Shown: positions 9,382 through 14,442 of the stretch, piece by piece | Layout: every line of letters starts with the position of its first letter | Numbering within the stretch: the stretch's first letter is position 1 | DNA from: a virus | Lineage: Duplodnaviria > Caudoviricetes | Direction: 5' to 3' (one strand) | DNA length: 62,810 nt | IMG/VR virus record: IMGVR_UViG_3300025652_007521 | Span: 1 to 62,810 of that record | Position numbers and translations under genes: made by a program | The notes under the pieces: generated by a model | Seen by the model: only the letters and a program-made list of their open reading frames with translations | What the model was told of the DNA's origin: nothing | Database searches by the model: none

Positions 9382-10086
9382 ATGGCTTTACCAACGTTGA
9401 ATGCTGCGAAGTATAGAACAGTCATTCCATCACTAAATCAGGAAATTGAATATAGGCCTTATTTAGTAAAAGAAGAAAAGATTTTAATGATTGCAATGGA
9501 ATCAAAAGATCAAAGTCAAATACTTAGAGCTTTAAAAGATGTAATCAAAGCATGTGTATATGACGACATTAATGTAAATAAATTAGCAATGTTTGATTTA
9601 GAAGCATTATTTTTGCAATTAAGAGGAAAGTCTGTTGGTGAATCGACAGAAATAAAAATTAAATGTAAGCATTGTGAAGCTGAAAATCATAGGGAAATTA
9701 ATTTCGAAGACATTAATATGCCCGTTGTAACAAATAAGAATAATGTTATTGCTTTAACTGATGAAATAGGTGTAACATTAAGTTATCCATCAGTAGGTGG
9801 ATTAGAAAAGCAAGATCAAAAAGCAAGTAGTGTTGAGCAAGCTATGAATATGATTGTTGACTGCATTGAATCAATATATGATGCAAATGCAGTATATTCA
9901 GCAAAGGACGAAGGTACAAAGGCAGTAAAAGAATTTGTTGATTCTTTAAATAGTGCTCAGTTTAAGAAATTAACAGCGTACTTTGAAGAAATGCCGGCAG
10001 TAACTTATGATATGAATTTTGATTGTTCTTCTTGTGGTGAAACAAATGAGATGGAGTTAAGAGGCTTCGACAATTTTTTTGGTTAG
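9382..10086 (+). CDS. gp26: Baseplate hub assembly protein gp26
   Basis: MALP.L....Y....PS....I.YRPYLVKEEKIL, L..FDLE.LFL.LR.KSVGE, two CxxC motifs, ends G..NFF. Confidence 0.9.
   Translation: MALPTLNAAKYRTVIPSLNQEIEYRPYLVKEEKILMIAMESKDQSQILRALKDVIKACVYDDINVNKLAMFDLEALFLQLRGKSVGESTEIKIKCKHCEAENHREINFEDINMPVVTNKNNVIALTDEIGVTLSYPSVGGLEKQDQKASSVEQAMNMIVDCIESIYDANAVYSAKDEGTKAVKEFVDSLNSAQFKKLTAYFEEMPAVTYDMNFDCSSCGETNEMELRGFDNFFG
10074..10080 (+). other. Candidate -1 ribosomal frameshift slippery heptamer (T TTT TTT)
   Basis: In X-XXY-YYZ phase with gp26 codons (AAT TTT TTT GGT TAG). The -1 frame stays open into gp51. Confidence 0.65.
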
Positions 10087-10133
10087 GCCTCTCTCACGAT
10101 ACCTTATATAACCACTATAAGACCAACTTTGCG

Positions 10134-10274
10134 ATGATGCAACACCATAATTATAGTCTCACGGAATTAGACAATATGATGCCGTGGGAACGTGAGATAT
10201 ATGTAGCGTTATTACAAGAACATATTAAAGAAGAAAATGAAAGACGTAAAGCAGAACAAGCGAGGAGTAAATAA
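10134..10274 (+). CDS. gp51: Baseplate hub assembly catalyst gp51 (short form; coding probably extends back to 10080 by frameshift)
   Basis: Not in the ORF track. MMQHHNYSLTELDNMMPWEREIYVALLQEHIKEEN is the typical marine T4-like gp51 motif; no RBS before the ATG. Confidence 0.85.
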   Translation: MMQHHNYSLTELDNMMPWEREIYVALLQEHIKEENERRKAEQARSK

Positions 10275-10594
10275 TGTCTGAAGAAGAAAAAGTATTCCAT
10301 CCAGCAGATACGAATGGTGATGGTAAAGTAAGTGCAGCTGAAGAGCAGTTATATCTTGAGTTTAAACGCAAAGAGTTAGAAGATGCTGATGCTATGCGTG
10401 ATGCTCAACGTAACATGACATGGTTTGCATTAGGTGGATTACTATTATATCCATTCGCTGTTGTTCTTGCATCACTAGCTGGTTTAGATCAAGCACAAGA
10501 AACATTAGGTGATATGGCACCAACATACTTTGTAGCTGTTGCTGGTATTGTTGCTGCGTTCTTTGGTACACAAGCAATGAAAGGTAAGAAATAA
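10274..10594 (+). CDS. Small membrane protein with an EF-hand-like loop and two TM helices
   Basis: DTNGDGKVSAAE loop, two hydrophobic segments, basic C-terminus; GAGGAG RBS. Confidence 0.75.
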   Translation: MSEEEKVFHPADTNGDGKVSAAEEQLYLEFKRKELEDADAMRDAQRNMTWFALGGLLLYPFAVVLASLAGLDQAQETLGDMAPTYFVAVAGIVAAFFGTQAMKGKK

Positions 10595-10727: not shown

Positions 10728-12491
10728 ATGGCTGATAAAATAGATCCCGAAATACTAGAAGCTATGAAGAATAGCATTATGTCTGAGGCGCAGTTAAAAG
10801 CTGGCTTTGGTGGTAAGGCATTCGAAGGTGGTAAGGACGTAAAGGGATTCGGCGGAAAGGGTATGAAAGCCGAAGATCAAACAAAGAAGAATAGCCGGCT
10901 TGAGTCTGGTGTTGCTTCTGGAGAGCTCGGCCGTTTAGCTAAACAATTAGAAGAACAAAATAAAATTGCTCAAAATAATAAATCTGAAAAAGATAGACAG
11001 CAAGCTTTAATGGATCTTGTTCTAGCAACCGAGAAAGGTGACGAGGAAGGAGCGCAAAACGCACTAGAATTAAGAGCTACATATATTGCAACACAAGAGC
11101 GATTAGAAAAAGCTATCGAATCTGGAGATAGTTCTCTCATAGAATTAGAACAAGCTAATATTGAAAGAGTTCTAGCCGGTGCTGAAACAGAAGAGAATCG
11201 CCGAGAAGCTAATAAAATGGCTGAAAAACAGTCTGGTTTATTAGATAAAATATCAGGTGGGATTAGTGGATTAACTGGTTTTCTAAAAGATAATGCTGTT
11301 GCTATTGGGGGTGGTTTATTAGCTGGCCTTGCGCTTTTTGCACCGGAATTAATGGAAAAATTAGTCGGAAGGCTTGTTGAGGTGCTAGGGACAGCGTTTG
11401 AAATCGTAAAGAAATTATTAGATGGTGATGTTAACGGTGCTCTTGAAGCTTTTGGTACAGAATGGAAGGCATTTACTGGTGCATTCATATTCTTCTTTGG
11501 TGGTAAAATTATAAAAGGTTTGAAGGCAGCGCATGCAGCTTTTAAAGGAATAATGGCTGCAGTACAAACATATAAAATGTTTTTAGCTACAAATTATGCT
11601 GGTAGTATGATGGCACACTTAAAAGATATGATGAAAAATCTTGGTAACACATTAATGAAGCCGTTAAGACTTTTACTAAATGGTGCTAAGGTATTTAGAG
11701 TATTTATGATGACAACATTTATTCCAGGAATGATAGCTGCATTTAGTGGAATGATAGCTGCAATTACGCCGATGCTAGTTGCTTTAGCTCCAATTCTATT
11801 ACCTATATTAGCAATTGCTGCAGTCTTTGGTTTAATATATCTTGCATTGGAAAAAATGCGAGAAGCAATGGGATTTACTTCTATCTTTGATGTAATGTTA
11901 CTAGGTCTTGCATATTTAAAAGATGGATTTGGTCATATTGTAAATCTTATTGGTACAATTGTTAACTTTATTATGGGCCTTGTAGGTAAGTTTGCTAGCT
12001 TCCTTGGGTTTGATATAGATATTCCAAAGATACCAAAAATGGATACTGATAATGCTTCAAGGAAAAAGGCAGAATTACAAGAAAAAGCAGCCGCTGCGGC
12101 AGAAGAAGAAGCTGCCAAGAAAGCAAAACAAGATATTGATGCGGATCCACTAAGATATGAAGTAGATATAACAGAACCAGAATTATCTACGAGTACAATT
12201 GATTCAAGCGAATCAATAACACCTGATAGCACATCTAGTAGAGGTAGAGGGAGAAGGAGAGGTCGAGCATCTGTATCTAAAAATCAACCGGTTGCGGGAG
12301 ATCAACTAAATATAGAATCAACGGAAAATAATATGATGCAAGAAAAAGCTCAGACTAATTCCCCTACGAATGTTGTAGTACAAAATAAAGGTGGAGACGT
12401 AACAAATAATAGTACAACTAATCAAACAAGAAATTACAGACGAAGAAGAGGGTGGAGATCTAATGATACAGATACTGCCGCGGCTTTTTAA
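10728..12491 (+). CDS. Probable tape measure / baseplate hub protein (gp29-like)
   Basis: 587 aa, coiled-coil N-terminus, long Ala/Gly/Leu hydrophobic helical core, low-complexity tail; lies between gp26/51 and gp48. Confidence 0.7.
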   Translation: MADKIDPEILEAMKNSIMSEAQLKAGFGGKAFEGGKDVKGFGGKGMKAEDQTKKNSRLESGVASGELGRLAKQLEEQNKIAQNNKSEKDRQQALMDLVLATEKGDEEGAQNALELRATYIATQERLEKAIESGDSSLIELEQANIERVLAGAETEENRREANKMAEKQSGLLDKISGGISGLTGFLKDNAVAIGGGLLAGLALFAPELMEKLVGRLVEVLGTAFEIVKKLLDGDVNGALEAFGTEWKAFTGAFIFFFGGKIIKGLKAAHAAFKGIMAAVQTYKMFLATNYAGSMMAHLKDMMKNLGNTLMKPLRLLLNGAKVFRVFMMTTFIPGMIAAFSGMIAAITPMLVALAPILLPILAIAAVFGLIYLALEKMREAMGFTSIFDVMLLGLAYLKDGFGHIVNLIGTIVNFIMGLVGKFASFLGFDIDIPKIPKMDTDNASRKKAELQEKAAAAAEEEAAKKAKQDIDADPLRYEVDITEPELSTSTIDSSESITPDSTSSRGRGRRRGRASVSKNQPVAGDQLNIESTENNMMQEKAQTNSPTNVVVQNKGGDVTNNSTTNQTRNYRRRRGWRSNDTDTAAAF

Positions 12492-12506: not shown

Positions 12507-13376
12507 ATGACTAAGATATACGTATACCCAGAATCTTTACGAGAAAAAGCAGATTCGTTTAAAGGCTTTCCTCATGTATCATTTGAAATGGTACAAAGAG
12601 CATTGCCTGAAGCTGTGAAAATTCATTTATATGTTCCTGGCGGATTTAGTGTACCAGATGGAGCAAACTATGGTACAATTAATCTAAATACTCTTGGTTC
12701 AACTCAGTCCGAGATTAATCAAACTAATGAAAAAGATCTAGCCTTATTAAAAGCAGGAGCTGCATTAGATGCTGCAGGATTAGGTGATTTAACACCGGCA
12801 GCACAAAAACAAGCTATCAATCAAGGTATTGCACTTAATCCTAATACTGCCGTTCAGTTTGATACTGTCAATTTAAGAACATTTGATTTTAATTTTAAAA
12901 TGGTTGCTGAATCTTCTGAAGAAGCTTATCAAATTTTTCAAATAGAAAACTTATTTCGTAAAGCGCTATACCCGACGAGACAAGGTGCACTACTAAAATA
13001 TCCTCCTACGTTTAAGATACAGTTTTTACATGGTGATCAGATAAATTCTTATATGCCTCGAATCATGGAGTCATATTTAGTAGGGTTAAATACAACATAT
13101 AATGCAAGTTCTAATATGTATCATGCTGATGGTTCTCCATCTGAAGTCGATGTATCGTTATCATTCCAAGAAACAGAATTAATTACTCGCGAAAAACTAT
13201 ATGGACCTGAACCTGGATTAGTCAATCCGGGAAGTGAATTTGGTCTAGACTCTATAGAAAAAGAAATACAAAGCAGAGTTGGTGCATTAGAAGGTGAAAT
13301 ACGAGGTAGAGTAAATGAAGCTAAGAGCGGATTTAATAGTGCCATTGATAAACTTGCAAGCAAATTTAAGCTATAG
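12507..13376 (+). CDS. gp48: Baseplate tail tube cap gp48
   Basis: I.LY.P, NPN....F....LRTF.FNFKM...S.EEA..I..I...FR...YP, YP..F.I.F, L.FQE.E..TR. Confidence 0.85.
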   Translation: MTKIYVYPESLREKADSFKGFPHVSFEMVQRALPEAVKIHLYVPGGFSVPDGANYGTINLNTLGSTQSEINQTNEKDLALLKAGAALDAAGLGDLTPAAQKQAINQGIALNPNTAVQFDTVNLRTFDFNFKMVAESSEEAYQIFQIENLFRKALYPTRQGALLKYPPTFKIQFLHGDQINSYMPRIMESYLVGLNTTYNASSNMYHADGSPSEVDVSLSFQETELITREKLYGPEPGLVNPGSEFGLDSIEKEIQSRVGALEGEIRGRVNEAKSGFNSAIDKLASKFKL

Positions 13377-13386
13377 GAGATTATAA

Positions 13387-14442
13387 ATGTTTTTTAGTCA
13401 ATTTCCAACACTTCAATATAATTTTAATCGTAGTGGCAATATTGAAAGAATGGTCGACATATTTCGTAGCGTACGACCAGAAACATTACAAGAATTAAAT
13501 CAAGTTACTGTCTATAAAGATTATGAAGTGCATGATGGCATGCGTCCTGATGTTTTATCTCAAAAATTATATGGAACACCAGATTTTTATTGGACCTTTT
13601 TTATTATTAATGATTTTTTACATGATGGTCTACAAGTTTGGCCGATGAGTGAAGAGTCTCTTCGAAGATATATTGCAAAAAATTATTCAGGTAAAGCACT
13701 ATGTTTTAAACCAGATGTTGTTGAAGATTCAGATGGTATTCCGCAAGGAACAAAAAACTCTGTCTCAGGCGTATTACAATTAGGTGAACTTATATATGGT
13801 GGAACTTCAGGAGCCTTAGGTCGACTTGTTCGTAAGGACGCAGATTTAAATGAGATCATACTTCAAGATGTTGTTCCGGGTATTCGCGGCACTGATCCAG
13901 CAGGTGGTGCAGTTGATAATAATATTGTAGGTGGTGATTTTCAGCCTGGAGAATTTCTTAGTGCATCAAGAACTACATTAGATAGCTTTACATTATTTTC
14001 TTTACAAATTCATAAGGTTTATGACTACGCAGCTGCTCCTGCATATTATTATGAAACTGGTGATCCAAATAAAAGACCAATAACAAATCCTGATGGAATA
14101 GCACCATTAAAAAATGTTTATTCTGATGTGCATTGGAATCAGAAAATAAAAAATCAAATTCCATCACTCGATCTAAATGATTTTGGTGTAGCTGGTGCAA
14201 CTACTCAAACTAATGCAGCTTATGGTGCACCTTTAGTATATAGTGGTGGATATATTACCGGCTATAGAGAAGAATTAAGAGAAGGATATCGTAATACTGC
14301 AGAAATTGAAGGTGGTGTATCATATATAACAAATGAACAGCACATACGTCATCTAAATGACAAGCGATCTAAAATAAAAATTATTGATCCAGGATACATA
14401 CTAACGTTTGTCGAAGAATTTGAGAATGTTTTAAATGGCTAA
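13387..14442 (+). CDS. gp53: Baseplate wedge protein gp53 with internal insertion
   Basis: FFSQFP.L.Y, Y.V.DG.RPD.LS.KLYG.P.FYW....IN, WP, ending N..R..IKII.P.YI..FV.EF. Confidence 0.88.
   Translation: MFFSQFPTLQYNFNRSGNIERMVDIFRSVRPETLQELNQVTVYKDYEVHDGMRPDVLSQKLYGTPDFYWTFFIINDFLHDGLQVWPMSEESLRRYIAKNYSGKALCFKPDVVEDSDGIPQGTKNSVSGVLQLGELIYGGTSGALGRLVRKDADLNEIILQDVVPGIRGTDPAGGAVDNNIVGGDFQPGEFLSASRTTLDSFTLFSLQIHKVYDYAAAPAYYYETGDPNKRPITNPDGIAPLKNVYSDVHWNQKIKNQIPSLDLNDFGVAGATTQTNAAYGAPLVYSGGYITGYREELREGYRNTAEIEGGVSYITNEQHIRHLNDKRSKIKIIDPGYILTFVEEFENVLNG

Follow-up and report, generated by a model that had tools for sequence, protein, structure and literature searches.

How does a T4-like phage make the baseplate hub assembly protein gp51 when the frame that encodes it offers no start codon until part of its conserved sequence has already gone by? 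The question is raised by the gp26 locus of the viral record IMGVR_UViG_3300025652_007521, whose whole stretch of 62,810 nucleotides (nt) was analysed and is called the window below. Here gp26 ends in a run of T residues that forms a slippery heptamer in phase with the gene, and the frame one base back (the −1 frame) continues as gp51-like sequence. Comparison of this junction with those of its relatives makes it very probable that a programmed −1 ribosomal frameshift occurs at T_TTT_TTT (10074–10080), near the end of gp26. The features on which this prediction turns are as follows.

9382–10086, + strand: gp26 gene in the zero frame, 234 amino acids (aa), the short product (list of open reading frames (ORFs); PF12322; phrog_150)
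10059–10064, + strand: Shine–Dalgarno (SD)-like AAGAGG, 9 nt 5′ of the heptamer, a candidate upstream stimulator
10074–10080, + strand: slippery heptamer T_TTT_TTT, in phase with gp26 (direct reading)
10080–10274, + strand: extension in the −1 frame, 64 codons and TAA, a gp51-like C-terminal domain (translation; phrog_634)
10084–10086, + strand: zero-frame stop TAG, one codon past the heptamer, which terminates the short product
10134–10274, + strand: 46-aa ORF started by ATG, the downstream part of the extension and the 'gp51' of gene callers

The window gp26 is a member of the Pfam family T4_baseplate (PF12322). Its residues 9–233 aligned with positions 2–218 of the 219 in the profile (E-value 3.5e-60), and it scored 203.9 bits over the whole profile against a curated cut-off of 24.5. 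It also matched PHROG 150 (phrog_150, 'baseplate hub') with an E-value of 7.8e-64. The 3′ end of the gene reads GGC TTC GAC AAT TTT TTT GGT TAG, where T 10074 is the third (wobble) base of the AAT (Asn) codon and TTT TTT occupies 10075–10080, giving the pattern X_XXY_YYZ. The −1 frame opens at 10050, after TGA 10047–10049. Read from the re-read T at 10080 it translates as WLGLSHDTLYNHYKTNFAMMQHH..., 64 residues that end at TAA 10272–10274, and residues 3–63 of this extension matched positions 59–119 of the 121 in phrog_634 ('baseplate hub assembly catalyst', the gp51 family; E-value 2e-29). The window thereby has the two marks of a programmed −1 site, an in-phase X_XXY_YYZ heptamer and an open −1 frame with a conserved product. 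The predicted shifted product has 233 + 64 = 297 aa, with the junction peptide ...GFDNFF-WLGLSHDTLYNHYK.

The 46-aa ORF lacks the conserved LSHD..YYKTNF part of the extension, which precedes its ATG. By direct reading, the −1 frame holds no ATG, GTG or TTG from 10050 up to the ATG at 10134, and no purine-rich Shine–Dalgarno sequence lies upstream of that ATG; AGGAG or GAGGAG precedes gp26, the ORF at 10274 and the ORF at 13387. An earlier note on this DNA, made from its letters alone, had pointed to the in-phase heptamer, to the AAGAGG 9 nt upstream of it, to a −1 frame without a stop as far as 10274, to a predicted gp26–gp51 fusion of roughly 297 aa and to a first gp51 ATG without a ribosome-binding site, and the window bears out each of these points.

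The same note had suggested that T4-like gp26/gp51 junctions be compared for a conserved heptamer and a −1 phase, and that a random phase between the two ORFs would speak against a frameshift. We surveyed 257 stretches, made up of 247 IMG/VR loci, nine loci from annotated phage records and the window; the IMG/VR queries were the gp26 proteins of the window, of a KVP40-like vibriophage, of Pseudomonas phage pf16 and of Sinorhizobium phage phiM12, together with a metagenomic fusion protein. T4 (L005) and IME13 (L089) were excluded as phages of the two-gene type. A gp26 3′ end and a tblastn match to the extension were found in 245 of the 257 stretches. In every one of the 245 the extension lay in the −1 frame relative to gp26, and in every one there was an in-phase T_TTT_TTN (TTTTTTT in 124, TTTTTTC in 120 and TTTTTTG in one). 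Nine of the remaining stretches had no gp26 end and two were too short downstream. The last (L258) gave no tblastn match, yet its −1 frame encodes a divergent extension with MMPWE, which brings the total to 246 of 246 junctions at which heptamer and phase are kept. The sole TTTTTTG heptamer is that of Rhizobium phage P9VFCI (L091, about 1440–1500), where several N stand in the codons just upstream.

These loci comprise 191 distinct sequences, which fall into 36 clusters at a gp26 identity of 50% and into 18 at 40%. The lineages with the junction include Kyanoviridae, a pelagiphage, phiM12, pf16, KVP40-like vibriophage, P9VFCI and a Desulfovibrio phage. The distance from the heptamer to the zero-frame stop varied, being 3 nt in 181 stretches, 0 in 20, 6 in five, 9 in three and 24 in 36 (n = 245). 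A tblastn search with the 64-residue extension matched 580 phage records, 544 of them with at least 80% of the query covered, and in nearly all rows among the matches listed the similarity began at residue 1 or 2, 5′ of the ATG.

The heptamer is constrained as nucleotides, and not just as codons. The residue before Phe-Phe is variable (Ser, Asn, Asp, Ala, Thr or His), and the third base of its codon is T in all 191 distinct sequences (AGT 68, AAT 52, GAT 50, GCT 9, TCT 6, ACT 5 and CAT 1). The first Phe codon is TTT in all of them as well, and elsewhere in the same genes the T-ending share of such codon pairs is 0.66–0.76. If the 36 clusters are taken as independent, which is only roughly true, the chance of both features in all of them is about 1e-11 (0.5 to the power 36). 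Position 7 of the heptamer is T or C in 244 of the 245 stretches, and the codon after it is free. Among distant relatives (246 junctions, 36 clusters below 50% identity), heptamer and phase are conserved beyond what the protein requires. A single T-run is no proof by itself: TTTTTTY is depleted in the window and not enriched, with 31 matches counted over the two strands where shuffles lead one to expect 70.6 (100 of 100 shuffles had at least 31), and the argument against chance rests on conservation. Eight of the 31 matches lie on the + strand, which is the strand of all named genes read between 6316 and 14442.

The sequence between the heptamer and the ATG behaves as though it were translated in the −1 frame. 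Over the first 54 nt past the heptamer, the minimal changes counted inside clusters fell in the ratio 98:80:244 at positions 1, 2 and 3 of the −1-frame codons; judged by this pattern, these 54 nt, which separate the heptamer from the usual first ATG, have changed in the manner of sequence that codes in the −1 frame. The motif LSHD..L.NYYKTNF, encoded before the ATG, belongs to the most strongly conserved portions of the extension. Among the 174 distinct sequences in which the YYKTNF motif was found, the first ATG came after the start of the motif in 153, and 128 had no ATG, GTG or TTG before it. The earlier note had the gp51-like sequence begin before the first ATG, and so it does, with similarity from residues 1–3 of the shifted frame and no upstream start in most sequences.

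T4 itself, with two separate genes, shows what the two products would correspond to. T4 gp26 (208 aa) consists of PF12322 only. T4 gp51 is much longer than the 46-aa ORF, as the earlier note had stated: its 249 aa contain PF12322 over residues 1–201 (E-value 3.9e-52) and a C-terminal tail. The two T4 proteins have detectable similarity to each other (E-value 2e-6). Aligning the predicted fusion with full-length T4 gp51, a check put forward in advance, revealed a gp26-like domain followed in frame by the same extension; the window extension aligned with T4 gp51 residues 207–246 (BLASTP E-value 6e-6), and relatives carry PF28602 in a precomputed table. In a multiple alignment the Phe-Phe of the marine gp26 proteins stood opposite EFFELL-stop of T4 gp26 and opposite DVFKLLVNPDE... 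of T4 gp51, which continues in frame. In its architecture, the long product predicted for the window (297 aa) thus corresponds to T4 gp51, and the short one (234 aa) to T4 gp26.

The site homologous to the heptamer is GAG TTC TTT in T4 gp26, and T_TTT_TTY was present at this site in none of six gp26 genes and none of six gp51 genes of two-gene phages. PF12322 occurred once in each of five frameshift-type complete records (Mosig, P-SSM2, phiM12, pf16 and Va3) and twice in each of five two-gene complete records (T4, IME13, Henu6, Fraggle and Pm5461). T4 gp51 was found full length and in one piece in 1375 of 1380 matching phage records, which belong to enterobacterial, Acinetobacter, Aeromonas and similar phages. 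An unrooted domain tree with long branches, from a quick search with support by the Shimodaira–Hasegawa-like approximate likelihood ratio test only, grouped the frameshift type (35 rows, support 95) and the gp51 N-terminal domains (6 rows, support 99); the T4-type gp26 proteins formed five rows and one long branch. A side observation concerns T4 gene 26, for which an internal in-frame product, 26′, is annotated as the C-terminal 95 aa of gp26 (L005, 2803–3090); T4 thus makes more than one form from this gene by another route.

The predicted long product can also be judged as a fold. AlphaFold2 modelled a natural in-frame metagenomic fusion protein of this type (P0008, 295 aa) as a single confident fold, with a predicted local distance difference test score (pLDDT) of 92.3 and a predicted template modelling score (pTM) of 0.85. 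In the model a short helix (227–234) crosses the junction, and the extension adds three helices, the last of about 29 residues. Searched against the PDB with Foldseek, the fold had no match at E ≤ 0.001 and best template modelling (TM) scores of about 0.1, and phmmer gave no sequence match in the PDB. A BFVD fold search with the fused relative gave 69 matches at E ≤ 0.001, and among the best 50 of these 69 the named ones were mostly 'baseplate hub' or hub assembly proteins; the gp26/gp51 family matched in this way is spread widely over myoviruses.

We propose that most ribosomes would stop at TAG 10084–10086 and release the 234-aa gp26. A fraction would slip with two tRNA-Phe on TTT TTT, re-pair one base back, resume at TGG 10080 and read the −1 frame to TAA 10272–10274, yielding 297 aa that comprise the gp26 domain and a 64-residue helical extension. 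This long product would be the counterpart of T4 gp51, and one gene would supply both hub-assembly chaperones, with the rate of frameshifting setting the ratio of the short to the long form. That the ribosome and not RNA polymerase slips, how efficiently it shifts, what stimulates it and that the products act as chaperones are parts of the proposal that we infer, and the chaperone role is carried over by analogy from T4 genetics. One study lists T4 gp26 and gp51 as hub assembly chaperones and describes gp51 as a required protein of unknown function that is missing from the completed particle (PMC3004832). In Escherichia coli, according to another, H_HH.U_UU.Y heptamers are among the most efficient −1 motifs, U_UU.U_UU.C and U_UU.U_UU.U shift at more than 0.1% without a stimulator, and U_UU.U_UU.C is used at the frameshift sites of insertion sequence (IS) elements (PMC4066793). 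The AAGAGG upstream of the heptamer may act as a stimulator, and the nearby zero-frame stop may contribute to shifting. An SD-like core of 4–5 nt is present at −18 to −6 in 33 of the 36 cluster representatives, and the Glu codon before a conserved Gly in this region is GAG in 41 distinct sequences and GAA in 10, compared to a background GAG share of 0.26.

Several observations weigh against this reading or against parts of it. The surveyed loci share descent, so counts of loci overstate their independence. The SD-like element is confounded, as it also encodes a conserved (R/K/E)-Gly that T4 gp26 keeps without a frameshift, and the Lys codon before that Gly shows no bias. RNAalifold on 35 representatives returned 0 pairs and hence no conserved stimulatory structure. 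The window can fold into a hairpin around the heptamer (−23.1 kcal/mol, z −2.07), which is unsupported in the alignment of relatives, where 63.2% of cells were paired compared to 60.5% in shuffles and 25 of 500 shuffles reached as high a value. About 20 of the 191 distinct sequences have an ATG at codon 2–3 of the shifted frame; this ATG and the gp26 stop share bases (TAATG or TGATG) in Va3, phiM12 and P9VFCI, and the early ATG of P-SSM2 lies two bases after the gp26 stop. Lineages with such an early ATG may also make a free small gp51 by coupled re-initiation. Independent initiation of gp51, which the earlier note had held would overturn the proposal, is therefore conceivable in about a tenth of the sequences, and in most of the others the position of the first ATG, after the start of the motif, argues against it. 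Finally, the window is a whole record that covers about 35% of a genome, and although it contains one PF12322 gene, a second may lie elsewhere in the genome of its phage.

The same long protein could arise if RNA polymerase added one U within the U6–U8 run. We consider this unlikely, because the constraint follows codon phase and not run length. The site is indeed a homopolymer of 6–8 T, and the depletion of TTTTTTY in the window could reflect slippage of this kind; UUUUUUU is also under-represented in E. coli genes in all three frames, for which PMC4066793 suggests slippage or indel mutation as possible reasons. What is conserved at the junction, however, tracks the X_XXY_YYZ phase. The run is exactly T6 followed by C in 120 of 245 stretches, it begins without exception at the third base of the codon before Phe-Phe, and 'non-T, TTT TTT, non-T', the arrangement in which the same T6 run would come free from Phe-Phe, occurs in none of the 245. 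The T or C at position 7 fits the ribosomal rule U_UU.Y. Longer runs than this are usually required before a bacterial RNA polymerase slips efficiently. In addition, an RNA contig across the run has no inserted base, although contigs drop rare variants. That gp26 and gp51 are two ordinary genes, with a small gp51 made from its own ATG (10134) or by termination–reinitiation and the T-run kept for Phe-Phe, is very improbable. It would agree with the annotation of six of the eight annotated frameshift-type records (P-SSM2, Mosig, phiM12, pf16, Va3 and P9VFCI), which carry a separate short gp51 coding sequence (CDS), a truncated 'gp51' ORF; with the finding that none of the eight has a joined CDS in GenBank or RefSeq; and with the ATG that overlaps or adjoins the gp26 stop in some lineages. 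The other two records, S-CAM1 and ACG-2014e, have no gp51 CDS, as none can be called. As described above, most sequences have their first ATG inside or after the conserved motif and no start codon of any of the three kinds before it, the window has neither a start codon from 10050 to 10134 nor an SD sequence before 10134, and the part 5′ of the ATG shows conservation at the protein level and the pattern of change of sequence that codes in the −1 frame. A need for Phe-Phe explains neither the invariant T in a variable preceding codon nor the invariant TTT, and in T4 gp26 the retained Phe-Phe is encoded by TTC TTT. If the genes were independent, a −1 phase would not persist over 36 deep clusters in which the stop lies anywhere from 0 to 24 nt past the heptamer.

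It remains to consider whether the break in frame is an artefact, through an error in the length of the T-run of a single fused gene, or a decay product, a pseudogene left by a 1-nt deletion. Homopolymers are error-prone, and a few in-frame fused ORFs do occur among the proteins: P0008 (295 aa), P0014 (303 aa, four contigs from two sources) and P0010. The junction of these three looks intact, and they could be either genuine in-frame fusions or the result of homopolymer errors; in several other 'fused' proteins of the database the stretch just before the junction looks out of frame, which suggests errors in those entries. An IMG/VR search for the DNA of P0014 returned only relatives at 34–48% identity, four of them with the junction and all four of the frameshift type. 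None of the 246 junctions is in frame, the same phase recurs among many samples and isolates, and about half of the heptamers are T6C rather than T7. An erroneous T-run, a concern raised in the earlier note, is also at odds with other assemblies, since contigs of two other DNA studies (X6 and X8) and of one RNA run (X17) span 10074–10080 with 0 gaps and no indel listed, in agreement with the window. Among the RNA-library contigs X17 covers the site and X15 only its flanks, and contigs of this kind are blind to expression level, strand and rare slippage products. We therefore regard artefact or decay as scarcely credible, and return to the programmed ribosomal frameshift as the reading that we prefer.

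In order, the genes around the junction are gp2 (DNA end protector), a tail-tube-family protein, gp26 with the extension, two small ORFs, a 587-aa gene and gp48. Those downstream of the extension are listed here.

10274–10594, + strand: small ORF, 106 aa
10594–10710: small ORF
10728–12491, + strand: 587-aa gene at the position of T4 gene 29 (tape measure / hub), by position and length only
12507–13376: gp48 (phrog_230, 'baseplate tail tube cap', E-value 3e-37)

The pair had been placed just upstream of the tape-measure gene. It does lie shortly upstream of a large gene, but is not adjacent to it, as 454 nt and two small ORFs separate the end of the extension from the 587-aa gene, and the tape-measure label depends on position and length. 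At E ≤ 0.01 the 587-aa protein matched neither a Pfam nor a PHROG family, and it had no BLASTP similarity (E-value 2.0) to T4 gp29, which is of near-identical length (590 aa). In T4 the gene order is 51-27-28-29-48-54, and in cyanophages the next large gene is annotated as an endolysin or as hypothetical. The N-terminus of the 106-aa ORF weakly resembles an EF-hand (17.8 bits, below the cut-off); the ORF also has hydrophobic segments, and its ATG overlaps the TAA of the extension by one base. In the metagenomic relatives P0002, P0021, P0036 and P0061 the gp51-like frame continues in frame into a protein of the 106-aa type, in ORFs of 153–195 aa; one cluster of such run-on ORFs has 31 members. 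In some marine relatives the shifted frame may thus run into a downstream EF-hand/membrane protein to form a three-part fusion. The closest nucleotide match in the phage collection was Pelagibacter phage HTVC008M, at 71% identity over 22% of a 2-kb query, and the collection held no close isolate of the window phage.

How might a one-gene and a two-gene arrangement have come to exist among T4-like phages? The frameshift type is retained in a KVP40-like phage, which belongs to Straboviridae, and on the basis of virus taxonomy the duplication would therefore be derived. We give about even weight to a wider view: that the frameshift was ancestral in the whole T4 superfamily as the source of two hub/tape-measure chaperones, that on the way to T4 a gene duplication took its place, with tandem copies in a Klebsiella phage and divergent ones in T4, and that the T4 gp51 'catalyst' is in effect a permanently shifted gp26. 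In Klebsiella phage Fraggle (L261, 1201–2494) a gp51-like and a gp26-like gene share a strand, preceded by gp48 and gp54 and followed by gp25, a tandem arrangement that is a possible intermediate of the duplication. The gp26 and gp51 genes are divergent in T4, IME13, Henu6, AhFM11 and Pm5461.

A full-text search of open-access papers and preprints (subscription papers and supplements lay outside its scope) returned no mention of a gp26/gp51 frameshift. In the accessible part of a T4-like phage paper that tabulates both genes a frameshift is not mentioned either (PMC5349666). On the wider view given above, the T4 group would be no exception to the two-product chaperone rule of long-tailed phages. 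If the proposed frameshift is real, most of the T4 superfamily would make the C-terminal module by a conserved frameshift. To our knowledge, the group has been thought to lack a short-plus-extended chaperone arrangement; the logic of that arrangement would now extend to it, with an unrelated fold. Seen as gp26 with a C-terminal module, gp51 would also become a concrete model, in which two proteins share a domain, differ by a helical tail of 60 residues and are needed in a set ratio. The case would be one of programmed frameshifting and gene duplication as interchangeable solutions, and hundreds of cyanophage, pelagiphage, vibriophage and rhizobiophage genomes would have to be re-annotated.

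Among known frameshift sites, the junction resembles the bacterial U_UU.U_UU.Y sites of IS3/IS1 family transposases and the site of dnaX, with which it shares the X_XXY_YYZ pattern and the re-pairing of both tRNAs. The SD-like element 9 nt upstream in the window recalls the stimulator of the IS911/dnaX type, and the spacing of the SD-like stimulator in dnaX is comparable with that in the window. In contrast to IS and dnaX sites, no conserved downstream hairpin or pseudoknot was found at the junction, and its zero-frame stop lies within 0–24 nt. The hosts here are marine bacteria and cyanobacteria, whereas the efficiency data come from E. coli.

With T4 the likeness is in the proteins, as the window gp26, T4 gp26 and residues 1–201 of T4 gp51 all belong to PF12322. 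The identity of the window gp26 is 22% to T4 gp26 and 16% to T4 gp51. T4 has two divergently transcribed genes where the window type has one gene and a frameshift site.

The comparison with the tail assembly chaperones G and GT of phage lambda concerns the strategy of expression. In lambda, ribosomes shift by −1 shortly before the end of a small assembly gene that precedes the tape-measure gene, so that a short protein and a form extended at its C-terminus are made; the same holds for E and E+E′ of phage P2, and such a tail-chaperone frameshift is conserved in long-tailed phages. The window locus would likewise make a short and a C-terminally extended product by a −1 shift, shortly upstream of a presumed tape-measure gene. 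In lambda the initiator complex consists of the tape measure and the assembly chaperones, which are later displaced by the tube protein, as stated in PMC8718954. The window gp26 differs from the lambda protein in being larger (234 aa), in having two CxxC pairs and in being separated from the large gene by two small ORFs. Searches by Pfam, by sequence against the PDB and by Foldseek against the PDB revealed no relation in sequence or fold, and neither the window gp26 nor its extension matched a tail-assembly-chaperone family in Pfam or PHROG. The term 'lambda G/GT-like', under which the locus had first been described, thus holds for expression strategy and approximate gene position and fails for family and fold, and gp26/gp51 are not filed in the G/GT family. 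As there was no match to solved structures, those of lambda-type chaperones included, the likeness to G/GT is one of strategy, not of ancestry.

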